This document shows, in pieces, positions 32,644-58,138 of a DNA stretch of 64,000 bases. The position numbers were made by a program, and so were the translations under genes. How positions within the stretch are numbered: the first letter of the stretch is position 1; every line of letters begins with the position of its first letter. Below the pieces are notes generated by a model. The model searched no databases. It worked only from the letters and a program-made list of their open reading frames with translations, and was not told where the DNA came from. Location of the stretch: assembly GCA_963708025.1 (NCBI GenBank), contig CAVPSB010000044.1:1-64000 (forward strand), given 5' to 3'. The stretch is from an uncultured Candidatus Rokubacteria bacterium. Its GTDB lineage: Bacteria > Methylomirabilota > Methylomirabilia > Rokubacteriales > DASRDR01.

Positions 32644-32844
32644 GGGGCGAGGCCGACGAGCGAGCAGCGCCCACAGGCCGGAGGCCGTCCAACCGACGCA
32701 GGGAGTCGCCCACCGCAGGCGTATGCCCCATACGCCGAGGATGGGCGACGACTGAGGACGACCATAGGTCGGGACGGACGCGAGGCCGTAGGCCGAGCGC
32801 GTCCCGGCTGAGATGGACGATGCGAAGCTCATCGGCCTCGCCCC
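32644..32844. repeat. Dispersed structured repeat family A, copy 1
   Basis: 18-bp terminal IR (17/18); core GGAGTCGCCCACCGCAGGCGTATG...CATACGCCGAGGATGGGCGAC shared with 43793 and 57012. Confidence 0.9.
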
Positions 32845-38839: not shown

Positions 38840-41763
<2,924 letters not shown>

Positions 41764-42823: not shown

Positions 42824-43738
42824 TTATTCCATCAGGTAGAGAGGAAGCTTGGTCGCTCCTAGCAGCGGCCACGGGGCGAGGGCGGCGCGCCCGGCGAGCA
42901 GCGTGCCGAGCGCGGTGTGGCTGCCGGCCCAATCGGCGAGGTCGGCCCAGCGGAACTGGCGGCGGGGACGCACGAGTTGCGGCTTGCCGGCGATGCCGGC
43001 GAGGGTGCCGGCCACCCGCACCGCGTCCTCGAGACCGCCCAGGCTGTCCACCAGTCCCAGCTCCTTCGCGCGGCGACCCGAGTAGACACGGCCGTCGGCC
43101 AGCTCCAGCACGGCCGCCCGGTCCAGGCGGCGTCCCTTGGCGACCGCCGTCACGAACTGATCGTACATGTCGTCGAGGAGTGTTTGTAGAATCGCCCGCT
43201 CCTCGGGGGTCATCGCCCGCGCGACGTTGCCCACGTCCTTGTGGCGGCCGGCCTTGACCACCTCGAAGTGGATGCCGACCTTCTTGAGAAGGCCCTCGAA
43301 CTCGGCGAGTTGGATCAGCACGCCGATGGAGCCGGTCAGGGTGCCGGGGTTGGCGACGATGTGGTCGGCGGCGACCGCCAGGTAGTAACCGCCGGAGGCG
43401 GCGAGCGCGCCCATCGACACCACCACGACCTTGCCCTTCTCGCGCACGCGCGCGATGGCGTCGTGGATCTCCTGGCTCGGGCCCACGACACCACCCGGGC
43501 TCTCGACGCGGACGACGATGGCCCGGATGGAGGCGTCTTCGAGGTGCTCATCCAGCTGGCGGACAACCGGCTGGGCGTCGACGATGAGCCCCTCGACCTC
43601 GACGAGCGCCACCCGGTTCCCGCCCAGCGTCCACTCGCCGCGCTCGGCGAGGACCAGGAGGCCGAGGATGGCGATGAAGCAGGCGGCGAAGACCAGGCCG
43701 GTGACCGCCAGCGCCGTCAGAACCCGCCGCCGCACCAT
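42824..43738 (-). CDS. sppA: Signal peptide peptidase SppA (S49)
   Basis: VESPGG, AASGGYY, TGSIGV, GLVDSLG. Confidence 0.93.
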   Translation of the reverse strand: MVRRRVLTALAVTGLVFAACFIAILGLLVLAERGEWTLGGNRVALVEVEGLIVDAQPVVRQLDEHLEDASIRAIVVRVESPGGVVGPSQEIHDAIARVREKGKVVVVSMGALAASGGYYLAVAADHIVANPGTLTGSIGVLIQLAEFEGLLKKVGIHFEVVKAGRHKDVGNVARAMTPEERAILQTLLDDMYDQFVTAVAKGRRLDRAAVLELADGRVYSGRRAKELGLVDSLGGLEDAVRVAGTLAGIAGKPQLVRPRRQFRWADLADWAGSHTALGTLLAGRAALAPWPLLGATKLPLYLME

Positions 43739-43792
43739 CAGCAGTCTACGATCCTTCTCGCGCGAAGCTCATGGCCGACGGGTCATACCGAA

Positions 43793-43933
43793 GCGGGGCC
43801 GAGGAGCGAGCAGCGCTAGGACGCAGGGAGTCGCCCACCGCAGGCGTATGCCGCATACGCCGAGGATGGGCGACGACCCCGAAGGCCGAAGGCCGTCCGA
43901 AGGACGACGCGATGCGACGCTCATCGGCCCCGC
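43793..43933. repeat. Dispersed structured repeat family A, copy 2
   Basis: TIR GCGGGGCCGA...TCGGCCCCGC; same core; 3 nt after the rpsA TAG. Confidence 0.9.
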
Positions 43934-43936
43934 GGG

Positions 43937-45730
43937 CTAATCGTCGTCGTCGTCCTCGTACCTGTCCCGGTCCCTCCGCCCCTTCCCGCGGCCTCGATGG
44001 AGCTCCGGGTCCTCCACCGCCACGGCGAGGTCGGCCGCCAGCTCCTTGAGCGACAGCCCGATGCGCCGCTCGTTCGGGTCCACGCGGATCACCTTGAGCG
44101 TCAGCTCGTCGTTGACCTGCACGACGTCCTCGGGCCGGTTGATCGGGCGGTGCGACATCTGGGAGATGTGCAACAACCCGTCGACCCCAGGCTCCAGCTC
44201 CACGAAGGCGCCGAACTCGGCGAGGCGGACCACCTTGCCCTTGACGTTGGCGCCCAGGGGGTACTTGGCGACCGCGGTCTCCCAGGGATCGGGCTGGATC
44301 TGCTTGAGGCCGAGCGAGATCCGCTTGGCGTCCTTGTCGACGTGGAGGATCACGGTCTCGAGCGCCTGGCCCTTCTTGACGACTTCCGAGGGATGGGTCA
44401 CGTTCCGGGCCCACGTCATGTCGGAGATGTGGAGCAACCCGTCGATGCCCGGCTCCAGCTCCACGAACGCGCCGAAGTCGGTGAGGTTGCGGACCTTGCC
44501 CTGGACGCGGACGCCCGGCTGGTAGCGGGTGTCGATCGTGTCCCACGGGTCCGGCTCGACCTGCTTCATGCCCAGCGAGATGCGCTTCTGGCCCTTGTTG
44601 ACGTCGAGAACCTGCACCTCCACGTCGTCGCCCACGTTCACCAGCTTGGAGGGGTGGCGCACGCGGCGGGTCCACGACATCTCGGAGACGTGGACCAGTC
44701 CCTCGACCCCCTTCTCCAGCTCGACGAAGGCGCCGTAGTTGGTGAGGCTGACGATCTTGCCCTGGTGGCGGCTGCCGGGCGCGAAGCGCTCCTCGACCGT
44801 CTCCCACGGGTCCGCGCCCTTCTGCTTGAAGCCGAGCGAGACCCGGCCCGTCTCCCGGTCGAAGTGGAGGACCATCACCTCGATCTTGTCGCCGACCTGG
44901 ACCAGCTCCGAGGGGTGGCTGATCCGGCCCCACGACATGTCGGTGATGTGGAGCAGGCCGTCGATCCCGCCGAGGTCGATGAAGGCGCCGTACTCGGTGA
45001 TGTTCTTGACCACGCCGGTCAGGACCATGCCCTCGTGGAGGACGGAGAGCGTGTGCTTCCGCTTCTCCTCCCGCTCCTCCTCGAGGACCACCCGGCGGGA
45101 GAGCACCACGTTACCGCGACGCCGGTTCAGCTTGATGACCCGCGCCCGGATCTGCTGGCCCATCATGGTCGCCAGATTCTTGACGGGCCGGAGGTCGACC
45201 TGGGAGCCGGGCAGGAAGGCCTTCACGCCCACGTCCACGGCCAGGCCGCCCTTCACCACCTCGATGACCTTGCCCTCGACCGGGCTGCCCTTCTCGTAGG
45301 CCCGGGTGATGACGTCCCACACCTTGATCTTGTCGGCCTTCTCCTTGGACAGGACGATGAGGCCCTCGGAGTCCTCCTTCATCTCCAGGTAGACCTCGAT
45401 CTCCTCGCCAACCTTGGGGACGATGCCCGTCCGCTGGAACTCTTCCAGCGGGATCGTGCCCTCGCTCTTGTAGCCGACGTCGACGAGGACGTCGGCGTCG
45501 TTCACGGCCACGATCCGGCCGCGGACGACCTCGCCCTCCTCGAGATCCTGCAGGCTCTGGCGATAGAGGTCCTCGAGCTCGTCCTGACCGGCTCCCGCCG
45601 GAGGGATTCCGCTCGCCTGCTCGCCCGGAGCCTCCCGTCCCGCGCCCACCTCCTTCCGGGAAATTCCGGACCCGGCGCCCCCGCGGGGATAGCTCTCGTG
45701 GCGCTCGGGGTAGTGTTCGTGCTGTTCCAT
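43937..45730 (-). CDS. rpsA: 30S ribosomal protein S1
   Basis: Six S1 repeats (VDVGYKSEG, FLPGSQVD, GLLHITDMSW, GLVHVSEMSW). Confidence 0.97.
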   Translation of the reverse strand: MEQHEHYPERHESYPRGGAGSGISRKEVGAGREAPGEQASGIPPAGAGQDELEDLYRQSLQDLEEGEVVRGRIVAVNDADVLVDVGYKSEGTIPLEEFQRTGIVPKVGEEIEVYLEMKEDSEGLIVLSKEKADKIKVWDVITRAYEKGSPVEGKVIEVVKGGLAVDVGVKAFLPGSQVDLRPVKNLATMMGQQIRARVIKLNRRRGNVVLSRRVVLEEEREEKRKHTLSVLHEGMVLTGVVKNITEYGAFIDLGGIDGLLHITDMSWGRISHPSELVQVGDKIEVMVLHFDRETGRVSLGFKQKGADPWETVEERFAPGSRHQGKIVSLTNYGAFVELEKGVEGLVHVSEMSWTRRVRHPSKLVNVGDDVEVQVLDVNKGQKRISLGMKQVEPDPWDTIDTRYQPGVRVQGKVRNLTDFGAFVELEPGIDGLLHISDMTWARNVTHPSEVVKKGQALETVILHVDKDAKRISLGLKQIQPDPWETAVAKYPLGANVKGKVVRLAEFGAFVELEPGVDGLLHISQMSHRPINRPEDVVQVNDELTLKVIRVDPNERRIGLSLKELAADLAVAVEDPELHRGRGKGRRDRDRYEDDDDD

Positions 45731-45747
45731 ATCCTGCTTTCCTCCCG

Positions 45748-46440
45748 TTAGTGAATTTGGCCCACGGGCAACGGCCCCCGGGCCGTCCTCTCCGCGTGCT
45801 GTGTTGTCGTCGGTCCCGTGGGACTCGACGAGGAGGCCTGCTCGGCCTCGGCCTTCAGGCGGCCAATCGCCGCCATGATCTGGTCGCTGATCTCCTGGTA
45901 CCGGTGCCGGCCGCGCCCGCGCTCGAAGCGGAGCGGCGGACCGTACCGGACCGTCACGCAGGCCCGCTGGGGTCGGCTCGCGCCGCGCGGCAAGGCGTGC
46001 CCCGTCCCCTGGACGTAGACCGGGACCACCGGCGCTTCGGACAGCGCGGCCAGCATCCCGGCTCCCGGCCGCCCCGGCTGGAGCTGGCCCTCCGTTCCCC
46101 GCGTCCCCTCCGGGAACACGAGGAGCGCCTTCTCCTCCCGCAACAAGAGTAACGCATGACGGAGCGCGGCGGCGTCCGCACCGTCCCGCTCCACCGGGTG
46201 GGCATTCAGATGGCTGATCAGCCAGCCCAGGAACGGGACCCGGAACAGCTCGGCCTTCGCCATGAAGTGGATCGGCCGAGGGGCGGCGGAGCCCACGACC
46301 GGGGGGTCGAGCGCGCTCACGTGGTTGGCGGCCAGCAGGAGCCGGCCCTCCAGCGGGACGTTCTCGCGGCCGACCGCGCGGAAGCCGAAGAGGAGCCTGA
46401 GCACGGCGTAGGTCAAGGGCCTCAGGATCCGGTAGAGCAT
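45748..46440 (-). CDS. plsC: 1-acyl-sn-glycerol-3-phosphate acyltransferase
   Basis: NHVSALD, FMAKAELF, FPEGTR. Confidence 0.92.
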   Translation of the reverse strand: MLYRILRPLTYAVLRLLFGFRAVGRENVPLEGRLLLAANHVSALDPPVVGSAAPRPIHFMAKAELFRVPFLGWLISHLNAHPVERDGADAAALRHALLLLREEKALLVFPEGTRGTEGQLQPGRPGAGMLAALSEAPVVPVYVQGTGHALPRGASRPQRACVTVRYGPPLRFERGRGRHRYQEISDQIMAAIGRLKAEAEQASSSSPTGPTTTQHAERTARGPLPVGQIH

Positions 46441-47084
46441 ATCCGCTCGACTTCCTTGACCATCAGCTCGATCACCTCGTCAACGCTCATGCCGCTCGAG
46501 TCGATGTAGATGGCGTCCTCGATGCGCCGGAGTGGCGCCACCGCCCGGGTCCGGTCTGCGAGGTCGCGCGCGGCGAGCGCCTCCCGGACCGCCTCCAGCC
46601 CGGTCGTCTCGCCCCGGGCCTGGCGGTCCGCCAGCCGGCGGCTGGCCCGGACGTCGAGCGAGGCGTCCAGGTAAAACTTGCAGTCGGCCGCGGGAAAGAC
46701 CACGGTGCCGGCGTCCCGACCCTCCACGACGACCGGGCCGGCGGCGGCCAGGCGGCGCTGGAGGGCGTCGGCGAAGGCCCGGACGTCCGGGCGCTGGGAG
46801 AGGGCCGAGGTGAGCCCGCTCATCTGGGGAGCGCGGAGCGCCTCGGTCACATCCTCGCCGTTGACGAGGACCCGCTGCTGCTCGGGCCGGCCCTGGAGTT
46901 CGATCTCGGTGGCCGCCAGGGCGGTCTCCACCGGGACGCCGGCGGAGACCCGCCAGGCGATCGCCCGGTAAATCGCGCCGCTGGGGACGAACCGATAGCC
47001 CAGCCGCTCCGCGAGCCGCCGGGCCACGGTGCTCTTCCCCGCCCCGGCCGGGCCGTCGATGGTCACCACCGGGTGGCCGGTCAT
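46422..47084 (-). CDS. cmk: Cytidylate kinase
   Basis: IDGPAGAGKST, EGRDAGTVVFP. Confidence 0.95.
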   Translation of the reverse strand: MTGHPVVTIDGPAGAGKSTVARRLAERLGYRFVPSGAIYRAIAWRVSAGVPVETALAATEIELQGRPEQQRVLVNGEDVTEALRAPQMSGLTSALSQRPDVRAFADALQRRLAAAGPVVVEGRDAGTVVFPAADCKFYLDASLDVRASRRLADRQARGETTGLEAVREALAARDLADRTRAVAPLRRIEDAIYIDSSGMSVDEVIELMVKEVERICSTGS

Positions 47085-47196
47085 TCGGGTCCACCCCCAC
47101 CCCCGACCCCTCCCCACCCTCCGGGGGGAGGGGGGGCGGCCAGCAGCCCCGACGCGGCGCGAGGCCGGCAGAGCGTTGGGGTTGACATGCTGTGTC
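47085..47196. repeat. REP-like palindromic insert (family B) between aroA and cmk
   Basis: CCCCTCCCC-ACCCTCC-GGGGGGAGGGG hairpin; ends CGAA|TGA on the minus strand. Confidence 0.75.
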
Positions 47197-48513
47197 TCAC
47201 TCGGTCACCTCGATGCAGTCCGGGCCCGCTAGCGACCGGCAGGTCGAGATGAAGTCGGGGTAGGAGGTCTGGATGCACTCGATCCCCTCGACCAGCGTCG
47301 TCCCCTCCGCACCGAGCCCGGCGACGATGAGCGCCATCGCCAGCCGGTGATCCCCCCAGCTCGAGACGTGGGCGCCCCGGAGCGGGCCGCCTCCCGTCCC
47401 CTCGATCCGGAACCCGTCCGGCCGCTCCTCGATCCGCACGCCGAGCTTCGCGAGCTCGGTGACCAGGGCGCGAATCCGGTCCGACTCCTTCACGCGGAGC
47501 TCGGCGGCATCGCGCAGCTCGGTCACGCCCGCCGCGCGTGCCGCCGCCACGGCGAGGATCGGCAGCTCGTCGATCGCGCGGGGCACGACGCTCCCGCCGA
47601 TGGCCGTCCCCCGGAGCGGGCCGGGCCGGACCGTCAGGTCCCCTCGCGGCTCGCCGTCGTCGCCGGTCGGCGCGATCCGGAGGTCCGCTCCCATCGCCTC
47701 GAGGAGGTCGAGGGCGCCGGTGCGCGTCGGGTTGAGCCCGGCGCCCTCCACGGTCACCTGGCCCTCTCCGGCGAGGGCGGCGGCGACGAGGAAGAACGCG
47801 GCCGACGAGATGTCGCCCGGAACCCGGACCAGCCGGCCGGTCAGCGGACGGCCCGGCGTCAGCGTGACGGTCCGGTCCTCCACCGCGAGATCCGCGCCGA
47901 ACGCCGCCAGCATGCGCTCGGTGTGATCGCGGCTCCGCGCGGACTCGACCACCGAGACCGGCCCCGACGCCCAGAGCCCGGCGAGGAGGATCGCCGACTT
48001 GACCTGGGCGCTGGCGACCGGCGCCTGGTGGCGGATCGGCGCGAGCGGCCGCGCCCCGGCGATCACCAGCGGCAGGCGGCGACCGCCGCTCCGGCCCAGC
48101 ACGCGGGCGCCCATCCGGCCGAGCGGCTCCACCACGCGGTCCATCGGTCGCCGCCGCAGGGAGTCGTCGCCGGTGAGCGTCGCCGCGAAGGGCTGGCCGG
48201 CCAGGAGTCCGAGGAGCAGGCGCGCACTCGTCCCGGAGTTCCCGCAGTCGATCACGCTCTCGGGCTCGGTCAGCCCCTCGAGCCCCGCGCCCTGGATCAC
48301 GTAGTGCCCCGGCGCCTTGCGCGTGACCTCGACGCCGAGGGCCGCCACGGCGGCCAGCGTGCGCAAGCAGTCCTCGCCCTCCAGCAGCCCGTGGATCTCG
48401 GTGACGCCGGTCGCCACCGCCCCGAAGAGCGCGGCGCGGTGCGAGATGGACTTGTCGCCCGGCACGACGACGATCCCCCCCAGACGGCGAACGGCTCGGA
48501 CCCGCGCGTTCAC
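47197..48513 (-). CDS. aroA: EPSP synthase
   Basis: PGDKSISHR, CGNSGT, SAQVKSA, RDHTE, LRVKESDR, DHRLAM. Confidence 0.96.
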   Translation of the reverse strand: MNARVRAVRRLGGIVVVPGDKSISHRAALFGAVATGVTEIHGLLEGEDCLRTLAAVAALGVEVTRKAPGHYVIQGAGLEGLTEPESVIDCGNSGTSARLLLGLLAGQPFAATLTGDDSLRRRPMDRVVEPLGRMGARVLGRSGGRRLPLVIAGARPLAPIRHQAPVASAQVKSAILLAGLWASGPVSVVESARSRDHTERMLAAFGADLAVEDRTVTLTPGRPLTGRLVRVPGDISSAAFFLVAAALAGEGQVTVEGAGLNPTRTGALDLLEAMGADLRIAPTGDDGEPRGDLTVRPGPLRGTAIGGSVVPRAIDELPILAVAAARAAGVTELRDAAELRVKESDRIRALVTELAKLGVRIEERPDGFRIEGTGGGPLRGAHVSSWGDHRLAMALIVAGLGAEGTTLVEGIECIQTSYPDFISTCRSLAGPDCIEVTE

Positions 48514-49358
48514 TGGAGCTTCTCCCGCCGCTCGCGCGCTCGCCCCAGCGCCGATTCGAGCGCCTCCCACTCCCCGTCCCTGATGAGCGCGGCCCAGCGG
48601 TCCAGCACCGCCCGGTAGTCGCCGAAGGCGGCGAGCAGGGCCGCCCGGTTCTCGCGGAAGATGTCCGTCCAGAGCGTCTCCGCGGACCCCGCGATGCGCG
48701 TCGTGTCCTGGAATCCAGCCGCGGCCAGCGGCAGGGCGTCCTCGTCGGCCGCCGCCACCAACCCGTAGGCCGCGAGGTGTGGCAGGTGGCTGATGGCCGC
48801 CACGCCGCGGTCGTGGGCCTCGGGCGAGAGCTGGCGGACCTGGCTCCCGAGCGCCTCCCAGAACGCGGTGACGCGCGCAAGGGCGGGCCCGGGGGTGCGC
48901 GGCGTCGGCGTCACCAGCGCCAGCCGATCCTCGAACAGGTCGGCCTGTGAGGCCTCGAAACCCGAGCGCTCGGAGCCCGCCATGGGATGGCTCCCGACGA
49001 AGGCGCCGGATCCCGGCGGACAGGCCTCGGCCGCCGCCACGATCGGGCCCTTCACGCTCCCGACGTCGGTCAGCACGGCGCCGGCGGCCAGGTGAGGCCA
49101 GGCGCCTCGCACGAGCCCGGGCAGCGTCCCGACCGGAGTGCACAGCACCACGAGATCCGCGCCTCGCACCCCGGCCGCCAGGTCGTGGGTGGTCGTATCG
49201 ACGACGCCGGCGGCCCGGGCGCGCCCGAGGACCGACGCCGTCCGCCCGACCCCGACGATCTCCCGGGCCACCCGCCGGGCACGGGCGGCCCGGGCCACCG
49301 AGCCTCCGAGGAGGCCGAGGCCGACGACGGTCAAGCGCGAGAGTGACGGCTCGGTCAA
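48510..49358 (-). CDS. tyrA: Prephenate dehydrogenase
   Basis: GLGLLGGS, TDVGSVK, SHPMAGSE, HD...SHLPH, DTTRIA. Confidence 0.93.
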   Translation of the reverse strand: MTEPSLSRLTVVGLGLLGGSVARAARARRVAREIVGVGRTASVLGRARAAGVVDTTTHDLAAGVRGADLVVLCTPVGTLPGLVRGAWPHLAAGAVLTDVGSVKGPIVAAAEACPPGSGAFVGSHPMAGSERSGFEASQADLFEDRLALVTPTPRTPGPALARVTAFWEALGSQVRQLSPEAHDRGVAAISHLPHLAAYGLVAAADEDALPLAAAGFQDTTRIAGSAETLWTDIFRENRAALLAAFGDYRAVLDRWAALIRDGEWEALESALGRARERREKLQ

Positions 49359-50464
49359 CCGGCCTTCTTTCCCAGCACGGTCTGGAGTGCCTGGATGAGC
49401 CGCGCGTTCTCCTCCGGCGTGCCGATGGTGATGCGCAGCGCGCGCTCCAGCCCGAAGCTGGCCATGGGCCGCACGATCACCCCCTGCCGCAGGAGCCGCT
49501 TGTAGACGCCCGGGGCGTCGGCCATCTCGACCAGGATGAAGTTCGCCCGCGTCGGCACGTACTTGATCCCCATCGCGTCGAACGCCCGGTAGAGGGTCGC
49601 GATCCCTTCCTGGATCATCGCCACCGTCTGCCGGGCGTGGGTGTCGTCCTCCAGGGCGGCCAGGGCGGCGACCTGCGCGATCGTGTTGACGTTGAACGGC
49701 TGGCGGATGCGGTTCAGCAACCCGATGCAGTCGGGATCGGCGACGGCGTAGCCGACCCGCAGCCCGGCCAGGCTGGCCACCTTGGAGAACGTCCGGAGGA
49801 TGATGACCCGGCGCCCCTGGCGAAGGGCGGCCAAGCTGTCCGGGAAGTCGGGCCCCTGCGCGAACTCGACGTAGGCCTCGTCGAAGACGACGATGACGCG
49901 CTCCGGCACCTCGGCCAGGAAGCGGTCCACCTCCTCGGCCGTCACGATGGTGCCGGTCGGGTTGTTGGGGTTGGCGACGAAGACGAGCTTGGTCAGCGGC
50001 GTGATCGCCCGCGCCATCGTGGGGAGATCGAGCCGGTGGTCCTTGAGCGTGACCACCACCCGGATGCCGCCCACGCTCTGGACGATGGACGGGTAGACGA
50101 CGAAGGAGGGGTGGGGAAACACCACCTCCTCCCGCTGCCGCACGAAGGTCCGGGCGATCAGCTCCAATAGCTCGTTGGAGCCGTTGCCCAGCACGATGGC
50201 GTCCGGGGAGACCCCGTGGCGCTTCGCCAGCGCGTGGCGGAGGTAATGGCCGGAGCCATCCGGATAGCGGTTCAGCCCGCCCAGCACCTGGCGGATGGCC
50301 CGGAGCACGCCGTCCGAGGGGGGCAGCGGGTTCTCGTTCGAGGCCAGCTTGATGACGCCGGCGATCTCCAGCTCGCGCTGCACTTCCTCGATGGGCTTGC
50401 CGGGCTCGTAGGGCGCGATGTCGAGGATCGGCTCGTTGGCAAGACGCTCCCAGGACGTGCTCAT
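49355..50464 (-). CDS. hisC: Histidinol-phosphate aminotransferase
   Basis: KLASNEN, GNGSNE, NPNNPTG, DEAY, RTFSK. Confidence 0.95.
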   Translation of the reverse strand: MSTSWERLANEPILDIAPYEPGKPIEEVQRELEIAGVIKLASNENPLPPSDGVLRAIRQVLGGLNRYPDGSGHYLRHALAKRHGVSPDAIVLGNGSNELLELIARTFVRQREEVVFPHPSFVVYPSIVQSVGGIRVVVTLKDHRLDLPTMARAITPLTKLVFVANPNNPTGTIVTAEEVDRFLAEVPERVIVVFDEAYVEFAQGPDFPDSLAALRQGRRVIILRTFSKVASLAGLRVGYAVADPDCIGLLNRIRQPFNVNTIAQVAALAALEDDTHARQTVAMIQEGIATLYRAFDAMGIKYVPTRANFILVEMADAPGVYKRLLRQGVIVRPMASFGLERALRITIGTPEENARLIQALQTVLGKKAG

Positions 50465-50475
50465 CTTGGCCTCTT

Positions 50476-51540
50476 TCAGCCCGCGACGGGGTAGGAGCCG
50501 AGGACCTTGAGGAACAGACAGCGCTCCCGCAGCGCGGCCAGCACGTCTTGCGCGGCGGCGTCAGCCTGGTGCCCCTGAAAGTCGACGAAGAACACGTACT
50601 CCCACGGTCGCCGCCGGGTCGGGCGGGACTCGATCTTGGTCAGGCTGACGCTGGCCGCGGCGAGCGGCTCCAGGATCCGATAGAGGGCGCCGACCTCGTC
50701 CTTGATGCTGAGCAGGATGGAGGTCTTGTCGCGTCCGGTCCGGCCGACCGGGCGGCGCCCGATCACCAGGAACCGGGTGACGTTCTGGGCGAGGTCCTCG
50801 ATGCGGTCGCGCAGGACCGGGAGCTGGTAGATCTCCCCGGCCAGCTCGCTCGAGATGGCCGCCACCGTCGGGTCCTCGACCGCCCGCTCGGCGGCCAGCG
50901 CGGTGGACGGCACCTCCACCGCCGGGGCGTGCGGGAGGTGCCGGTCGAGCCACTCGCGACACTGCGCCAGCGCCTGGGGATGGGAGAGGACCTGCTTGAC
51001 CTCGGCCAGATCCTGGGCCCGGGAGAGGAGATAGTGGTGGATCTCGAGCTGGATCTCCCCGCAGATCAGGAGCTCGGAGTCGATCAGTCGATCCAGGGTG
51101 TGGTTGACGGCGCCCTCGGTGGAGTTCTCCACCGGCACCACGCCGACGTCGGCCCGCTCGTGCTCGACCTCGGTGAAGACGTCGTGGATCGTGCGGAGCG
51201 GTGTGTACTCGGCCCGTCCCCCGAACTGCCGGAGCGCCGCCAGGTGCGTGAAGGTGGCCGGCGGACCGAGGTGGGCGACGCGGAACGGGCCCTCGAGCCC
51301 GCGCGCCGCCGAGAAGATCTCCCGCCAGATGGCGCGGACGGCCTCGGCGGGCAGCGGGCCCTCGTTCAGGCGGAGGAGGCGATCGAGAATCGCATGCTCG
51401 CGCTCGGGGACGAAGACGGGCGCCCCCGTCTCCCGCTTGGCCTGACCGACCTCGAGGGCGAGCGCGGCTCGCTTGTTGAGGAGCCCGAGGAGTTGCCGGT
51501 CGATGTCATCGATCCTGCCCCGCCATTCCGCCAGACCCAT
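50476..51540 (-). CDS. pheA: Chorismate mutase / prephenate dehydratase
   Basis: RIDDIDRQLL, PVENSTEG, SHPQALAQC, NVTRF, IESRP. Confidence 0.95.
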   Translation of the reverse strand: MGLAEWRGRIDDIDRQLLGLLNKRAALALEVGQAKRETGAPVFVPEREHAILDRLLRLNEGPLPAEAVRAIWREIFSAARGLEGPFRVAHLGPPATFTHLAALRQFGGRAEYTPLRTIHDVFTEVEHERADVGVVPVENSTEGAVNHTLDRLIDSELLICGEIQLEIHHYLLSRAQDLAEVKQVLSHPQALAQCREWLDRHLPHAPAVEVPSTALAAERAVEDPTVAAISSELAGEIYQLPVLRDRIEDLAQNVTRFLVIGRRPVGRTGRDKTSILLSIKDEVGALYRILEPLAAASVSLTKIESRPTRRRPWEYVFFVDFQGHQADAAAQDVLAALRERCLFLKVLGSYPVAG

Positions 51541-51576
51541 ACACGCTCCAGAGAACGGTCGCACAAAAGCCCACCT

Positions 51577-51605
51577 AGTATAGTGAAGGGGGTCGGGAGG
51601 CGCAA
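51577..51605 (-). promoter_or_regulatory. Sigma-70 promoter of the pheA operon
   Basis: TTGCGC-N17-TATACT. Confidence 0.55.
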
Positions 51606-51643
51606 GCGCGCTTCCGCCGGGCCCTGGCGGGGCCGGCGGCGCC

Positions 51644-52393
51644 TCAGGGGCGGGCGTGCCGGGCGTCCGCCGGCGCCGATTCCCCGCGGAGCGCGGCGAC
51701 CTCGCGGGGCGTCAGCTCGCGCCACCCGCCCGGGGTGAGGCGGCCCAGGCGGAGCGGTCCGTAGGCCACCCGCACGAGCCGGCGCACCCGAAGACCCACC
51801 GCGCGGCAGAGCCGCTTGACCTCGCGGTAGCGGCCTTCGGTGAGGGTCAGGGCCAGCCGGGTCTTCCCGGCCTCGGGCTCCAGCCGGCGCACCTCCTGCG
51901 CCCGCGCCGGCCCATCCTCCAGCAGCACGCCGCGCTCGAGCTGGCCGATGACCGCCGCGTCGACGTGCCCGTTGACGGAGACATGATAGACCCGCGGGAC
52001 GGCGTGGCGCGGATGCGTCAGGCGATAGGTCAGGGCGCCGTCGTTCGTGAGGAGCAGGAGGCCTTCCGCGTCGTAATCCAGCCGGCCCACCGAGTGGAGC
52101 CGTGCGCCGACGTCGGGCAGGAGGTCGAAGACGCGGGCCCGGCCCCGCGGGTCCTCGCGCGTCGTCAGGTACCCGGCCGGCTTGTGCAACAGCACGTAGC
52201 GCTTGGGCTCCGGCCGACGGATCTCCTCGCCGTCGACGCTGATCCGGTCGCGATCGGGATCGGCCCGGGCGCCCAGCTCGATGACCGGGTGCCCGTTCAC
52301 CGAGACGCGGCCGGTCTCGATCAGGCGCTCGGCCCCCCGGCGGGAGGCGATGCCGGCCTCCGCCAGGAGCTTCTGGAGGCGCACCGCCGCCAC
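51644..52393 (-). CDS. rluB: rRNA pseudouridine synthase
   Basis: RLQKLLAEAGIASRR (S4), VGRLD, GLLLLTNDG; follows scpAB. Confidence 0.88.
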   Translation of the reverse strand: MAAVRLQKLLAEAGIASRRGAERLIETGRVSVNGHPVIELGARADPDRDRISVDGEEIRRPEPKRYVLLHKPAGYLTTREDPRGRARVFDLLPDVGARLHSVGRLDYDAEGLLLLTNDGALTYRLTHPRHAVPRVYHVSVNGHVDAAVIGQLERGVLLEDGPARAQEVRRLEPEAGKTRLALTLTEGRYREVKRLCRAVGLRVRRLVRVAYGPLRLGRLTPGGWRELTPREVAALRGESAPADARHARP

Positions 52394-52396
52394 CGG

Positions 52397-53038
52397 TCAG
52401 AGCCGGGGGAGGACCGCCCCCTCGTCGGCGGGCCGAGCCTGCTCCTCGTCGGCGGGCGTCTCGACCGGGACCTCGGCGGCTTCCCCCGCTGCCGCCTCCG
52501 GCGCCGGGGCCTCGACCGCGGCCGGCGGGGCCGGGATGTCGAACGGCGGCAACTCGGCGAGGTCCCGCAGGCCGAAATGCTCGAGGAAGTCCCGGGTCGT
52601 GCCGTAGAGGATCGGGCGCCCCGGGGTCTCCCTTCGCCCGACCACGCGGACGAGCCGGCGCTCGAGGAGATGCGTCACCACCGCATCGGCGCTCACCCCG
52701 CGGAGCTGCTCGATCTCCGGCCGCGAGATCGGCTGGCGATAGGCCACGATCGCGAGGGTCTCCAGCGCGGCGCGGGAGAGGCGGCTCTTGAGGCGGAGAC
52801 GTTGGAGGCGGAGCAGCACCGGGGCCAGCTCGGGTCGGGTAACGAGACGGTAGCCGCCCCCCACCTCTACCACCGTCAGGCCCCGGCCCGCCGTCTCGCA
52901 GGCCACGCGCAGCGTGTCGAGCGCGGCGCGCACCTCGTCAGGCGCCAGGTCGAGCACCTCACCGATCCGCGCCAGCTCGAGTGGGGCGTCGGAGGCGAAC
53001 AGGAGCGCCTCGAGGGCGGCCTGGATCTCAGGGGTCAT
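52397..53038 (-). CDS. scpB: SMC-Scp subunit ScpB
   Basis: LEALLFAS, LSRAALETLAIVAYRQP, GRPILYGTT, FGLRDL. Confidence 0.95.
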   Translation of the reverse strand: MTPEIQAALEALLFASDAPLELARIGEVLDLAPDEVRAALDTLRVACETAGRGLTVVEVGGGYRLVTRPELAPVLLRLQRLRLKSRLSRAALETLAIVAYRQPISRPEIEQLRGVSADAVVTHLLERRLVRVVGRRETPGRPILYGTTRDFLEHFGLRDLAELPPFDIPAPPAAVEAPAPEAAAGEAAEVPVETPADEEQARPADEGAVLPRL

Positions 53039-53352
53039 TCGAAACCTCCCGCCCACCCCCCAGCCCCCCTCCCCCACCCACCGGGGGGAGGGGGGGGCCG
53101 GAGGACTCGCTTGTTTCACGCGCTCTCGAATCGCGACCTCTCACTGATTCGAAACCTCCCGCCCACCCCCCAGCCCCCCTCCCCCACCCACCGGGGGGAG
53201 GGGGGGGCCGGAGGACTCGCTTGTTTCACGCGCTCTCGAATCGCGACCTCTCACTGATTCGAAACCTCCCGCCCACCCCCCAGCCCCCCTCCCCCACCCA
53301 CCGGGGGGAGGGGGGGGCCGGAAGCGGGGCGTCGGTTGCTTCATGCGCTCTC
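53037..53352. repeat. 110-bp tandem repeat (about 2.8 copies) of a family-B palindromic unit between scpA and scpB
   Basis: GAAACCTCCC at 53041, 53151 and 53261; first two units identical; each holds CCCCCTCCCCC-ACCCACC-GGGGGGAGGGGG. Confidence 0.95.
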
Positions 53353-54150
53353 GGGCGCTGGGGCCGGGGTGGGCGGCGCCGTGGTGGCTGGGCTCGCCGC
53401 CCCCGTGAGGGCGCGCTCGATCACGATGTCGCCGAACAGCTCCCGCTGCTGGGCGCGGGCGCGCTGGACCCGCACCAGCTCGAGCACGGCCAGGAGCGTC
53501 ACCACCACCTCCGGCCGGGGTGGCGCGGCCCCGAGGAGCGCCGAGAACATGACGTACCACGAGTGGTCGAGCACGCCCAGGATCTCCGCCATGCGGGCGA
53601 GGAGCGACGGGGGCTCGGGCTCCACGTCCCGGGTCGGCTCCCCGCGGGCCAGCCGGACGAGGAATCCCCGGTAGCTCTCGGTCAGGTCCCAGAGGCTCAC
53701 GCTCTCGATCGGCAGGTAGTCCGGCATCGGCAGCTCGCTCCACGTCCGGGTGAAGCGCTGACTCCAGGCCGCCTCCTGCGCTCGGAGCCACTCCCCGATC
53801 TCCTTCACCCGGGCGTAAGCGCGGAGGCGCGCCTCCAGCTCGAGGCGGAGGGCTTCGCCCTCCTCGTCCAGCGCCTCGTCGGGGATCTCCGGCTTCGGCA
53901 GCAGGAGCTTCGACTTCAGGTAGACGAGCGTGGCCGCCATGACGAGGAACGCACCGGAGTCCTCCAGGTCACGGAAGTCGGTGGACTCCAGGTAGGCGAG
54001 GTAGCGGTCGGTGATCTGGCGGATCGGGAGCCGCGCCAGATCGATCTCGTTGGAACGGGCCAGGTGGAGGAGGAGGTCGAGCGGCCCCTCGAACCCCTCG
54101 AGGTGGACGGTGAGCGGGGTCGCGGTGGCCTCCGGCGCCTCGGCGCTCAT
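53341..54150 (-). CDS. scpA: SMC-Scp subunit ScpA
   Basis: FEGPLDLLLHL, FLVMAATLVYLKSKLLLP, LLAVLELV. Confidence 0.95.
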   Translation of the reverse strand: MSAEAPEATATPLTVHLEGFEGPLDLLLHLARSNEIDLARLPIRQITDRYLAYLESTDFRDLEDSGAFLVMAATLVYLKSKLLLPKPEIPDEALDEEGEALRLELEARLRAYARVKEIGEWLRAQEAAWSQRFTRTWSELPMPDYLPIESVSLWDLTESYRGFLVRLARGEPTRDVEPEPPSLLARMAEILGVLDHSWYVMFSALLGAAPPRPEVVVTLLAVLELVRVQRARAQQRELFGDIVIERALTGAASPATTAPPTPAPAPESA

Positions 54151-55133
54151 GCAATCCCCACCGCAGACTTGGCTTCCGCCAGCGTCTGCCGGGCCGTCTC
54201 CCGGGCGCTGGCCGAGCCGGCGTGGAGGATCTCGCGGATCCGCTCCGGCCGGGCGGCGAACTCCGCGCGGCGCCCCCGGATCGCGTCGAGCCTCGGCATC
54301 AGGTGGTCGAGCAGGACGCCCTTGCAGTCCAGGCAGCCGATCCCGGCCGTCCGGCAGCCGGTGGCGAGGCGCTCCCGGTCGGCCGACGGCGTGAAGATCT
54401 CGTGAAGGTCGAACACCGGGCAGACCTCCGGGTTGCCGGGGTCGCTCCGGCGCTGACGGGCCGGGTCGGTCATCATCGTCCGGATCCGGGGGACGGTCAC
54501 CTCGGGCGGGTCGGCGAGGTAGATGGCGTTGTCGTAGGACTTCGACATCTTCCGCCCGTCGGTCCCGGGGACCTTCGGGATCACGGTGAGCTTGATCTCT
54601 GGCTCGGGGAAGACGGGGCCGAACAGGTGGTTGAACCGCCGCGCCACCTCGCGGGTCAGCTCGACATGCGGCGCCTGATCCACCCCGACCGGGACGTACC
54701 GGGGCTTGTAGATGAGGATGTCCGCCGACTGGAGAAGCGGATAGCCGAGGAGGCCATACGATGGGGACGTGAGCGCGAGCTGCTCCACCATCTCCTTATA
54801 GGTCGGGACGCGCTCGAGCCAGGCCACCGGGGTCAACATCGAGAAGAGGAGGTGGAGCTCGGCGTGCTCGGGGACGAGCGACTGCACGAAGAACGTGCTG
54901 CGAGCCGGGTCGAGGCCGGCCCCGAGCCAGTCGGCGACCATCTCCACGGTGTTGGCGGCAATCTCGCCCTTCTTCGGGATGTCGGTGGTCAAGGCGTGAT
55001 AGTCGGCCACGAAGTAGAAGCAGTCGTAGTCGGCCTGGAGGCGCACCCAGTTGTCGAGGGCGCCCAGCAAATTGCCCAGGTGCAGGCGGCCGGTCGGCCG
55101 CATGCCGGAGAGGATCCGCTCGCGCGCCGCCAC
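54147..55133 (-). CDS. trpS: Tryptophanyl-tRNA synthetase
   Basis: SGMRPTGRLHLGN, YPLLQSADI, VPVGVDQ, KMSKS. Confidence 0.96.
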   Translation of the reverse strand: MAARERILSGMRPTGRLHLGNLLGALDNWVRLQADYDCFYFVADYHALTTDIPKKGEIAANTVEMVADWLGAGLDPARSTFFVQSLVPEHAELHLLFSMLTPVAWLERVPTYKEMVEQLALTSPSYGLLGYPLLQSADILIYKPRYVPVGVDQAPHVELTREVARRFNHLFGPVFPEPEIKLTVIPKVPGTDGRKMSKSYDNAIYLADPPEVTVPRIRTMMTDPARQRRSDPGNPEVCPVFDLHEIFTPSADRERLATGCRTAGIGCLDCKGVLLDHLMPRLDAIRGRRAEFAARPERIREILHAGSASARETARQTLAEAKSAVGIA

Positions 55134-55897
55134 TACCCGGTCCTCCCGACCCGGCCGGTCTGCCGCTCCGCCGCCTCCGCCAGGTAGGCGACGAGCCGGG
55201 TCACGTCGGCCGGGGTGTCCACCCCGAGCGAGGCGTGAGGCGTCACCAGGACACGGATCCGGACGCCGTGCTCGAGGGCCCGGAGCTGCTCCAGCGTCTC
55301 GGTCCGCTCGAGCGGCGTGGGCGGCAGCGCGGCGAAGCGCTGGAGGAAGCCGGCGCGGAACACGTAGATCCCGATGTGCCGGAGCGTGGTCACCAGCCCG
55401 GCTTGCCGCCGGAACGGGATCGGCGCCCGCGAGAAGTAGAGCGCGAAGCCGGCCTGGTCGAGCACCACCTTGGTCGCGTTGATGTCTTCCCTCTCGTCGG
55501 TGTCGCGGATCGGATGGGCGAGCGTTCCCATCTCGATCGCCGGGTTGGCCGCCATCACCCGGACCACCTCGTCGACCGCCCTGGCGTCGAAGGTCGGCTC
55601 GTCGCCCTGCAGGTTGACCACCAGCTCGGCGTCCTCGCTGCGCATGGCCTCGGCCACCCGGTCGGTTCCGCTCGGATGGGTCGGGCTCGTCATCACGACG
55701 GCGCCGCCGAAGCCGCGCACCGCATTCGCGATGCGCTCGTCGTCGGTGGCCACCACCACCCGATCCACGGTGCCGAGCAGCCGTGCCCGCTCCCACACGT
55801 GCTGGATGAGGGGCTTGCCGCGAACCTCGGCCAGGGCCTTGCCCGGGAAGCGCACCGAGGCGAAGCGGGCCGGGATGACGGCGACCGCGCGGGTCAT
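55133..55897 (-). CDS. kdsB: CMP-KDO synthetase
   Basis: IPARFASVRFPGKAL, SGTDRV, NLQGDEP, LYFSR, HIGIY, LEQLRALE. Confidence 0.96.
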   Translation of the reverse strand: MTRAVAVIPARFASVRFPGKALAEVRGKPLIQHVWERARLLGTVDRVVVATDDERIANAVRGFGGAVVMTSPTHPSGTDRVAEAMRSEDAELVVNLQGDEPTFDARAVDEVVRVMAANPAIEMGTLAHPIRDTDEREDINATKVVLDQAGFALYFSRAPIPFRRQAGLVTTLRHIGIYVFRAGFLQRFAALPPTPLERTETLEQLRALEHGVRIRVLVTPHASLGVDTPADVTRLVAYLAEAAERQTGRVGRTG

Positions 55898-56191
55898 TCG
55901 GGATCACCCTCTCGGCCGGCGCGCCTCGGGCCTACGGCCCTCGGGACGCGGCGGCCTCTGGCCCCACCCATCGACGGCCTTCGGCCTTTGGCGACCCCTC
56001 CCCACCCATGGACGGCCTTCGGCCTTTGGCCGGGGGGAGGGGAGGCGCGCCGCGATCCCGACGCCCCGCCTGGCCGGACGGACGAGCGGGTTGACACGGG
56101 GGGTCTCATTCGGGTGTTCCCTCGCCCCCGGCCCCTCTCACCCCGAAGGGGGAGGGGCGATTCCGGCTTCCGCGGCCGCATGGGCGCCGTT
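55898..56191. repeat. Composite palindromic insert of two family-B-like modules, carrying family-A sub-hairpins
   Basis: TCATTCGGG at 55894 and 56106; two copies of GACGGCCTTCGGCCTTTGG; CCCCTCTC...GGGGGAGGGG hairpin. Confidence 0.75.
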
Positions 56192-56947
56192 TCATCGCTC
56201 GCGCGTGTGTACGATCTCGCGCACCTTGGCGGCGCGGAGGAACACGTAGTGGGCGTAGAGGAGGGCCAGCACCAGGCCCCGCCGGCCGTCCAGGAACCCC
56301 GCCCGCAGGAGATACATGGAGACGAACCGCCAGGCCGGCCGGAGGAGGAGGTCGGCCAGGCTGCCGCCGCGCCCGGTCGCCGCCAGTTCGCGGGCGGCCA
56401 GCTCCGAGTAGCGGTTGGCCCGGGCGACGAAGTCCTCGATGCCGCGGTAGCTCTGGTGGTCGAGCGCGGCCCGGAGCCGGCCCACCGACCCGTCCACGCG
56501 GACCGACTCGTGGACGGCGCTCGCGGTGAAGCGCCCGCGACCCCGGCGGAAGAGGCGCAGCTGGTAGTCGGGATACCAGCCGCCGTGGCGGACCCAGGCC
56601 CCCTGGAAGAAGTTCCGGCGGGGGATCAGGTAGCCGACGTGGCCGGGGGAGCCGGCGAGCGTGGCGACGATCTCCTCACGGAGCCGCTCCGACACGCGCT
56701 CGTCGGCGTCGAGCGCCAGGATCCAGTCGGCCTGGCACTGCGCGAGCGCGAAGTTCTTCTGCGCCCCGTACCCTTCCCAGCCGTGGAACAGGACGCGGTC
56801 GGTGAACTCCCGGGCGATGGCCACGGTCTTGTCGCTCGAGCCCGAGTCGACGACGACGATCTCGTCGGCCCAGCCGACGCTCTCCAGGCACGCCCGGATG
56901 CGCTCCTCCTCGTTCAGCGCGATGATCGCGACGGACAGGCTAGCCAT
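56192..56947 (-). CDS. GT2 glycosyltransferase (KdtX/WaaE-like, LPS core)
   Basis: IIALNEE, VVDSGSSD, LALDADE, WYPDYQLRLF. Confidence 0.92.
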   Translation of the reverse strand: MASLSVAIIALNEEERIRACLESVGWADEIVVVDSGSSDKTVAIAREFTDRVLFHGWEGYGAQKNFALAQCQADWILALDADERVSERLREEIVATLAGSPGHVGYLIPRRNFFQGAWVRHGGWYPDYQLRLFRRGRGRFTASAVHESVRVDGSVGRLRAALDHQSYRGIEDFVARANRYSELAARELAATGRGGSLADLLLRPAWRFVSMYLLRAGFLDGRRGLVLALLYAHYVFLRAAKVREIVHTRER

Positions 56948-57011
56948 CCTCGTCCGACACGCTCCTAGGCTCCATGAAGCACCGAGGTGACGGCAGGCGA
57001 GCCAATTGCCG

Positions 57012-57179
57012 GGGGCGGGGCCGAGGAGCGAGCAGCGCCCACAGGCCGAAGGCCGTCCAATGGACGCAGGGAGTCGCCGACCGCAGGCGTATGCCGCATA
57101 CACCGAGGATCGGCGACAACCCCAAAGGCCGAAGGCCGTCCGAACGACGACGCGATGCGACGCTCATCGGCCCTGCCCC
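57012..57179. repeat. Dispersed structured repeat family A, copy 3
   Basis: Same TIR and core; abuts the epimerase TAG. Confidence 0.9.
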
Positions 57180-58138
57180 TAGTCATCGAAGCCCCCGGCC
57201 GCCTCGACCCGCTCCACCCAGGCGATCTCGTCGCGGAGGCCGTCGGCCAGCGAGGCCTTGGGCGACCAGCCGAGGAGGTCCGCCGCTCGCGTGACGTCTC
57301 CATACGTGTGGGGCATCTCGCCGGGGCCGCCCGCCGCGGTCTCGAGCCGGGCCGGTCGGCCGGTCAGGCGCTCGAGCAGCCCGATGGCGTCCCGTAGCTC
57401 GATGCGGCTGCCCCCCGCCACGTTCACGACCTCGCCCGGCGGCACCGCCGCCTCGGCCGCGCGACACGTCGCGTCCACGATGTCCCCGACGAAGGTGAAG
57501 TCGCGGGTCTGGCGCCCGTCGCCGAAGACAGGGATCGGCCGGCCGGCCCGGAGTGCCCGGATGAAGCGGTGAAAGGCCATGTCCGGACGCTGGCGCGAGC
57601 CGAACACGGTGAAGTAGCGCAGGGCGATCGTCGGAACCCCGTACGCCGCCGCATACAGGCCGCACAGATGCTCGCCGGCCAGCTTGGTGACCCCGTACGG
57701 TGAGAGCGGGCGGGTCGGGCTGTCCTCCCGCATCGGCAGCTCCGATCGGCCGTACACGGCCGACGACGAAGCATAGACGAAGCGACGGAGGCCACCATCG
57801 CGGGTCGCCTCGAGCAGCCGCTGGGTGCCGAGGATGTTCCGGTCGGTGTAGATCTGGAAGGCGTGGCCCCAGCTCGGTCGCACTCCCGCCTGGGCGGCCA
57901 GGTGAAAGACGACGTGGACGCCCTCCAGCAGCGGCGCCAGGTCGAGCTCGAGCAGGTCGCCCCGCACCAGGCAGAAGGCCGGCTGCTCGCGAAGGCCCGC
58001 GAGATTCGCCTCCTTGAGGCTCGCCGCGTAGTAGTCGGTGAACCCGTCCACGCCGACGACCGTGTGGCCGTCGGCGATCAGGCGTTCCGTGAGGTGCGAG
58101 CCGATGAAGCCGGCGCAGCCGGTGACCAGGCACTTCAC
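57179..58138 (-). CDS. NAD-dependent nucleotide-sugar epimerase/dehydratase
   Basis: GCAGFIG, HLAAQAGVR, SSSAVYG, YGVTK, RPDMA. Confidence 0.93.
   Translation of the reverse strand: MKCLVTGCAGFIGSHLTERLIADGHTVVGVDGFTDYYAASLKEANLAGLREQPAFCLVRGDLLELDLAPLLEGVHVVFHLAAQAGVRPSWGHAFQIYTDRNILGTQRLLEATRDGGLRRFVYASSSAVYGRSELPMREDSPTRPLSPYGVTKLAGEHLCGLYAAAYGVPTIALRYFTVFGSRQRPDMAFHRFIRALRAGRPIPVFGDGRQTRDFTFVGDIVDATCRAAEAAVPPGEVVNVAGGSRIELRDAIGLLERLTGRPARLETAAGGPGEMPHTYGDVTRAADLLGWSPKASLADGLRDEIAWVERVEAAGGFDD

Follow-up and report, generated by a model that had tools for sequence, protein, structure and literature searches.

The stretch of DNA analysed here, referred to as the window, comprises 64,000 nucleotides (nt) from an uncultured Candidatus Rokubacteria bacterium (contig CAVPSB010000044.1), whose assembly spans 8.17 Mb at 71% G+C and is rated 99.67% complete and 8.18% contaminated. 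Three gene junctions in the window, all read on the − strand, are filled by inserts that carry a hairpin formed from a run of C and a run of G nucleotides. The inserts lie between aroA and cmk (47084-47196), between scpA and scpB (53039-53340), and between the gene for a GT2 glycosyltransferase and kdsB (55898-56191). Pfam matches support the assignment of these six genes and of trpS and rpsA. The adjacent junctions are tight: trpS and scpA share an ATGA overlap, kdsB and trpS meet in TAGTG, and a 3-nt spacer follows scpB. Each insert ends in the heptamer CGAATGA (47081-47087, 53035-53041, and 55894-55900), with a fourth heptamer at 56106-56112, and the ATG within the heptamer is the start codon of cmk (47082-47084), scpB (53036-53038), and kdsB (55895-55897). 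In these respects the original prediction, which had been made from the letters of this DNA, was accurate, and the short open reading frames (ORFs) that it named (47188->47081, 56181->55894, and 53344->53141) all exist. As developed below, the inserts are very probably copies of a non-autonomous mobile repeat superfamily that works like the MIRUs, the interspersed repetitive units of mycobacteria, which reportedly go back to Supply et al. 1997. Two types of this superfamily, called type I and type II, are present among the following features of the window.

47197..47199, − strand: aroA stop codon TGA, which is the left one of the TGA copies flanking the insert; the preceding G (47200) creates a GTG
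47084..47196, − strand: type II body (116-nt type), with left arm, C-run/G-run hairpin, and G-rich right arm with a terminal A
47081..47083, − strand: right copy of the TGA at aroA-cmk, which with the final A of the element (47084) forms the cmk ATG
47081..47200, − strand: candidate relay ORF of 39 codons, from the GTG overlapping the aroA stop codon to the TGA overlapping the cmk ATG
53341..53343, − strand: scpA stop codon, on the second TGA within the left end of the first type I copy
53038..53352, − strand: three tandem type I copies with a period of 110 (53258-53352, 53148-53238, and 53038-53128)
56106..56195, − strand: GT2-kdsB module 1, a diverged single hairpin unit
55894..56109, − strand: GT2-kdsB module 2, of type II, with additional small hairpin units nested within its loop and located behind it

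At the aroA-cmk junction, the stop codon of aroA is followed by 113 nt containing the hairpin and then by CGAATGA. The expectation that every insert follows a TGA stop codon holds at this junction and needed correction at scpA-scpB, where the stop codon of scpA is located inside the element and the final scpA codons are therefore element sequence. At the other end of this array, the third copy closes with the base that provides the A of the scpB start codon ATG (53038), and a GGGAGG sequence is located 6 nt ahead of that start codon. The insert between the GT2 gene and kdsB is composed of two modules that are each spanned by a short frame. The frame of module 1 has 29 codons and runs from an ATG overlapping the GT2 stop codon (56192-56194) to the TGA of the internal CGAATGA, and the frame of module 2 has 71 codons and runs from the ATG of this internal heptamer (56107-56109) to the TGA overlapping the kdsB ATG. 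No second full copy of module 1 was found in the genome, and we regard it as a diverged singleton. The subfamily thus differs among the junctions, with type I at scpA-scpB and type II at cmk and in module 2 of kdsB. An Rfam scan of window positions 43000-58000 (E up to 1) yielded just far sub-threshold matches of the microRNA type.

By itself, the heptamer CGAATGA is not enriched in the genome, where it occurs 296 times on both strands versus about 317 occurrences expected from composition. It is found near the hairpin nonetheless: 29 of the 296 sit no more than 110 nt behind a C-run/G-run hairpin, and the intervals behind the 326 oriented hairpins represent approximately 0.2% of the sequence searched by our own arithmetic. 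This comparison had been proposed together with the original prediction, and it confirms that the hairpin inserts are not due to chance.

To survey the genome, a type I profile was built from 232 hairpin-anchored copies and used in an nhmmer search, which returned 416 non-overlapping matches. The full 93-position model is covered by 244 of these, the right end is reached by 364, and the left end by 277. Structurally, a type I unit is asymmetric. It begins with a TGA-containing left end and a second TGA ten bases on, continues into a stem of 12-13 base pairs (bp) formed by the C-run and the G-run, and closes with a G-rich right arm that contains GGGAGG and has the terminus ..CCCGAA. Type II has 30 matches, one of which is common to type I, and it combines the same hairpin and a similar right arm with a different left arm of about 75 nt. 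Copies number in the hundreds and are approximately 80-90% alike. When folding energies were compared with those of shuffled sequences, the type I unit alone stood out (z = −2.5). Tandem arrays of two to six type I units occur at 17 loci. The longest arrays (contig C2, 216075-216639, and contig C32, 131800-132400) comprise six units of type I (period 100) and five of type II, with every unit ending in ATGA.

Type II loops also harbor a smaller repeat. A hairpin unit of about 21 nt with a GGCC-GAA-GGCC core is nested once or twice in these loops, both in the window (55990-56045) and in many copies elsewhere. Where it is nested twice, it adds 42 nt and the reading phase is kept. Genome-wide, this core motif is present 528 times.

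Beyond this genome, the hairpin and right arm are kept in nine of 18 genomes of the same bacterial family and were found in none of the 12 genomes examined from four other families of the order. Five of 11 matches in the relatives end directly in RTGA, and three more have an ATG two bases on. In one relative (locus L041, G002:C164), the copy is followed by a repeat of about 30 nt of the end of the upstream gene, which suggests a local duplication that included the element.

The placement of type I copies was examined with genes from a codon-usage caller trained on long ORFs, which found every gene of the region that Pfam confirms, each in its correct frame. Among the 416 copies, 386 are located outside of called genes. 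For these, both neighbouring genes are co-directed with the element in 290 cases and both are opposite in 30 (binomial p ~1e-54). The remaining 30 matches, inside called genes, may reflect mistakes of the caller or else in-frame insertions like those of the Rickettsia palindromic element.

The copies are located precisely with respect to stop codons. For 227 copies with a left end and an upstream gene on the same strand, the upstream stop codon is the first TGA of the element in 119, lies within a few bases of this TGA in 137, and falls on the second TGA in 13, including scpA. In a minority subfamily, the flanking triplet read on the strand of the element is TCA, and these copies are inverted between genes, such that TGA again appears on the coding strand. 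Likewise, 70 copies have a gene of the opposite strand to their right, and in 30 of them the stop codon of that gene begins 1-4 nt past the element. The left TGA is associated with the right TGA (76/139 versus 31/105; Fisher p = 9e-5), and the base ahead of the right TGA is C whatever base precedes the left one. A 4-nt duplication (NTGA) was rejected for this last reason. Because the base before each TGA is not copied, the repeated unit is TGA, usually within CTGAG. This pentamer is also the commonest stop context of the genome, and CTGA is the commonest context of TGA stop codons genome-wide (2158 of 4594, the sum of the contexts listed).

Evidence for empty sites comes from two metagenome contigs that are approximately 95% identical to the window and skip exactly 116 nt at aroA-cmk. 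In the 288-nt contig from run X1, position 47080 is joined to 47197, with 47081-47196 skipped and three letters that fit either side. In the 502-nt contig from run X2, position 47084 is joined to 47201, with 47085-47200 skipped and four letters shared.

The nearest relatives compared belong to other genera of the same family, with proteins that are approximately 65-83% identical, and the inserts of the window are found in none of them. The GT2 gene and kdsB overlap by 4 nt in RTGA in 10 of the 11 loci where both genes are on one strand, and the eleventh locus has a 5-nt spacer. A script detected a −4 overlap of aroA and cmk in 11 of 19 relatives, to which the ATGA at locus L044 was added by eye. 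The overlapped empty sites anticipated by the original prediction are thus present at these two junctions, whereas scpA-scpB departs from that expectation. In the relatives, the scpA stop codon is 11-17 nt inside scpB, and scpB begins with GTGA or ATGA in many. The state before insertion was thus an overlap of 11 nt in place of an RTGA shared by the two genes. The repeat at this junction sits on a TGA embedded in the start context of scpB (RTGA), and scpA runs on into the element.

The junction ahead of ispD, located outside of the window on contig C32, gives a further comparison. In 11 of 11 same-family loci the upstream gene ends in a single CGR-TGA, and in this genome CGR-TGA is followed by a type I copy and then by a second TGA and the ispD sequence. 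The terminal C of this copy has abolished the former overlapping start codon, and the next in-frame GTG, two codons downstream, is likely the start of ispD. A junction of the livG/livF type (L094) was left out as a test site because there are many paralogues of such pairs.

Unrelated repeats also occur at the same positions in other genera, where scpA-scpB, aroA-cmk, and the region upstream of kdsB contain long spacers with unrelated tandem or hairpin repeats (L009 in G003, L024 in G029, L046 in G001, L056 and L079 in G025, and L061 in G023). These three junctions look as if they have been colonised by repeats repeatedly.

The two types differ in how their right ends relate to the start of the downstream gene. 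When an ATG lies between −2 and +12 of a type I end, it is in the frame of the called downstream gene in 87 cases, versus 7 and 5 in the other two frames. The spacer between GGAGG and the start codon behind type I copies is 5-13 nt in 74 of 102 cases. Together, the in-frame start codons and this spacing indicate that type I acts as a portable ribosome-binding site for about 100 genes. At the right ends of type I, CTGA is found in 93 of 364 and A followed by TGA in just 23. The claim that the element supplies the A of the start codon consequently applies to type II in every case and fails for type I, which mostly ends in C. Its companion, that the element supplies a G-rich ribosome-binding site, applies to type I through GGGAGG and fails for type II, which has no GGAGG before the ATG, the nearest motif being GGTGG.

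Type II is more uniform at its borders. All 23 copies with both ends have an ATGA terminus, and their first TGA is preceded by A in 19, by G in three, and by C in one. In 16 of the 23, the upstream gene terminates on the left TGA, and in 15 the right ATG shares the frame of a called gene, with most of the exceptions being inner units of one five-unit array. The distance between the two TGAs takes the values 116, 110, 137, 155, and 158 nt, with 212 nt at kdsB, and in 19 of 25 copies it brings the old start codon and the new stop codon into one frame. We refer to this arrangement as relay phase. At cmk the result is a single frame of 39 codons and at kdsB a pair with 29 and 71 codons; −4 overlaps link all of them, and no internal stop codon interrupts them. 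Moreover, the old ribosome-binding site of cmk (GAGGT, within the end of aroA) is still in place ahead of the GTG.

These observations support the model of a non-autonomous element between two TGAs. In the mechanism that we favor, a copy consists of a left arm that varies, the strong C-run/G-run hairpin, and a right arm rich in G with the terminus ..CGAA. A filled site holds the element between two TGAs where the empty site has one, in keeping with a target duplication of 3 bp (TGA, mostly as part of CTGAG). Surviving copies are found on the upstream stop codon and co-directed with the genes because TGA is the main stop codon in this organism. The type I design brings GGGAGG to a position 5-13 nt ahead of a start codon at or just past the end of the element. 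The type II design uses its terminal A and the TG(A) of the duplicated target to rebuild an ATG, and its length puts the old RTG in frame with the new TGA, so that ribosomes could be relayed through the hairpin by termination and reinitiation. We infer from the arrangement of codons that translation past type II would depend on termination-reinitiation via a disposable frame and translation past type I on the ribosome-binding site of the element itself, and that both may thereby enter operons without polarity.

A number of points weigh against this interpretation. The contamination of the assembly means that copy counts may mix strains, the gene models come from our caller rather than from an annotation, and the two empty-site contigs both come from a single study (two public runs). 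For the type II unit and for module 1, folding energies do not improve on those of shuffled sequences (z ~0). A right TGA is present within one base in just 132 of 364 type I right ends, suggesting that the duplication decays or that the target is looser than TGA. Regarding the target itself, the two TGAs of filled sites and the single TGA of empty sites fit the predicted 3-bp duplication, and sequence alone does not separate this event from insertion beside a TGA by an element with its own terminal TGA. Furthermore, no mobilising enzyme was found among the transposase families searched in the genome. For the relay frames, open frames are expected by chance at such high G+C, and type I has no frame preference between its TGAs (39/33/25, n = 97), such that a relay ORF is not general to the superfamily. 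The type II copies have a common origin, which means that the 19 of 25 do not represent 25 independent trials; counted by length class, five are in phase versus four out of phase.

The points on frames are the basis for an alternative in which the relay frames are never translated, downstream genes start via their own ribosome-binding sites, and the ATGA-to-ATGA phase of type II is an accident of consensus length. A one-in-three chance per family, the indifference of type I to phase, and the abundance of open frames in this genome would all accommodate it. Against it stand the lack of GGAGG before the type II ATG, where GGTGG is the nearest motif, the length variants of +42, +39, +21, −6, and +96 nt, in which phase is kept, and the GAGGT in the aroA end, which still precedes the GTG. 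We view untranslated frames as a possibility to be taken seriously, albeit as less likely than not. The mode of insertion has its own alternative, which is a single-strand, hairpin-guided event of the IS200/IS605 or REP kind that places the element 3′ of a TGA target. In this case the element carries its own terminal TGA and nothing is duplicated. Such an event would be in keeping with a structure dominated by one strong hairpin, with a consensus in which terminal inverted repeats longer than about 4 nt were not seen by eye, and with a base before the right TGA that is not a copy of the base before the left one. It would also agree with the orientation to the TGA strand, which is fixed in each subfamily, the TCA-flanked minority having its own internal variants. 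The corresponding enzymes should then be encoded in a genome of this completeness, but the Y1/RAYT transposase (PF01797) and the TnpB zinc-ribbon (PF07282) both have no match in it, whereas control genomes gave matches to each (six of 14 for PF01797). On balance, we find this mode of insertion unlikely.

The remaining search for an enzyme, which had been suggested as a check for a RAYT or insertion sequence (IS) transposase flanked by the same ends, can be summarized briefly. The repeat units are too short for protein coding. The genome contains seven IS110-type and five DDE_Tnp_1 genes, none of which adjoins or is flanked by repeat copies, and no long element bounded by the two ends of the repeat was found in the genome. 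Among partial matches, left-end/right-end pairs less than 6 kb apart number just two, 404 and 496 nt apart, and these share one left-end match on contig C14.

A different explanation does away with self-propagation as the driving force. The repeats might be mainly host-selected RNA modules between cistrons, acting as mRNA stabilisers, attenuators, or coupling switches based on the hairpin or a G-quadruplex, that were spread and kept for their function, with the rebuilding of start codons as a by-product. The strong bias toward the sense orientation, the G-runs on the mRNA strand, the location of the hairpin immediately behind stop codons, and the retention of hairpin and right arm in half of the same-family genomes are what such modules would lead one to expect. 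However, the presence or absence of the insert is precise and TGA occurs at both borders, hundreds of copies resemble one another closely, and tandem arrays have formed at 17 loci. Precise presence or absence, many similar copies, and arrays are signs of a replicating element, and we judge the host-selected explanation to be very improbable.

Our favored interpretation, that the inserts are MIRU-like mobile repeats, is based on features as they have been described and not on sequence resemblance, and no shared descent is claimed. MIRUs appear to insert at start codons and carry an ORF coupled to the gene with −4 spacing (PMC12548453). They are described as 40-50 copies of 40-100 bp that have filled and empty sites marked by tetranucleotide direct repeats, internal inverted repeats rich in G-C, and termini overlapping the genes on either side (PMC3184786). 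The overlapping ORF of MIRUs is proposed to allow insertion at a start codon while expression is hardly disturbed. Like MIRUs, the elements described here are short dispersed repeats within polycistronic operons that are oriented with the genes, occur as filled sites bordered by short direct repeats and as empty sites, possess internal inverted repeats rich in G-C, and form tandem arrays. A candidate counterpart of the MIRU ORF, overlapping the flanking stop and start codons (−4), can be read from the letters of the DNA at cmk, at kdsB, and in the 19 type II copies noted above, and type I has no preference for this phase. The superfamily differs from MIRUs in having about ten times more copies (416 + 30 versus 40-50) and a direct repeat of 3 nt (TGA) in place of a tetranucleotide. 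It also has one very strong C-run/G-run hairpin, a main type that supplies a ribosome-binding site and keeps no coupling ORF, and a host with 71% G+C.

Other repeat classes are more distant. Neisseria REP2 and Borrelia IR elements also carry a promoter, and none was seen in this superfamily, for which no promoter test was made. They are not described as located on upstream stop codons (PMC3184786). With REP and BIME sequences, the superfamily shares the character of G-C-rich extragenic palindromes that occur in hundreds of copies, mostly behind genes. It is distinct from these in that the genome has no RAYT (PF01797) and in that the units are 93-120 nt, asymmetric, of fixed polarity to genes, and bounded by TGA. 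Classical bacterial MITEs, such as Correia elements, are non-autonomous, create a short target duplication, and can alter the expression of neighbouring genes. In this superfamily, by contrast, no terminal inverted repeats longer than about 4 nt were seen by eye, and no parent IS with matching ends was found. No description of this repeat family turned up in the literature, which is weak evidence given that the search was made without the host name.

Some additional repeats in the window are separate from this superfamily. A second interspersed repeat of approximately 140-160 nt is found at 43793-43934, 57015-57176, and 32647-32808 and has 218 BLAST matches in the genome. Its start lies a few bases beyond TAG stop codons, and it is found behind rpsA as well as upstream of the GT2 gene. 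Internal repeats at 44153-44935 correspond to the S1 domains of rpsA and have a 261-nt period, and a 63-nt tandem repeat is located at 41425-41694.

A bolder proposal is that the superfamily represents an undescribed class of stop-codon-homing elements moved by an enzyme that is neither Y1 nor TnpB. The two designs would then be adaptations for colonising translationally coupled and essential operons in several soil lineages, and the module of hairpin and G-run would by now serve the host in setting the protein ratios of neighbouring genes. We consider this proposal speculative and rather improbable. More directly, the empty and filled sites show what we take to be a mobile repeat entering tightly coupled, essential operons (aroA-cmk, scpA-scpB, kdsB, and ispD) with the translation signals of the gene kept with the gene. 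This would extend the MIRU principle far beyond mycobacteria and to ten times the copy number. There are also consequences for annotation, because the start codons and ribosome-binding sites of about 100 genes in this genome are located in or directly behind repeat copies, and in at least one case (scpA) the end of a protein is encoded by the repeat. Finally, the two designs may serve as a natural test bed in which termination-reinitiation can be compared with initiation driven by a ribosome-binding site behind a strong hairpin.

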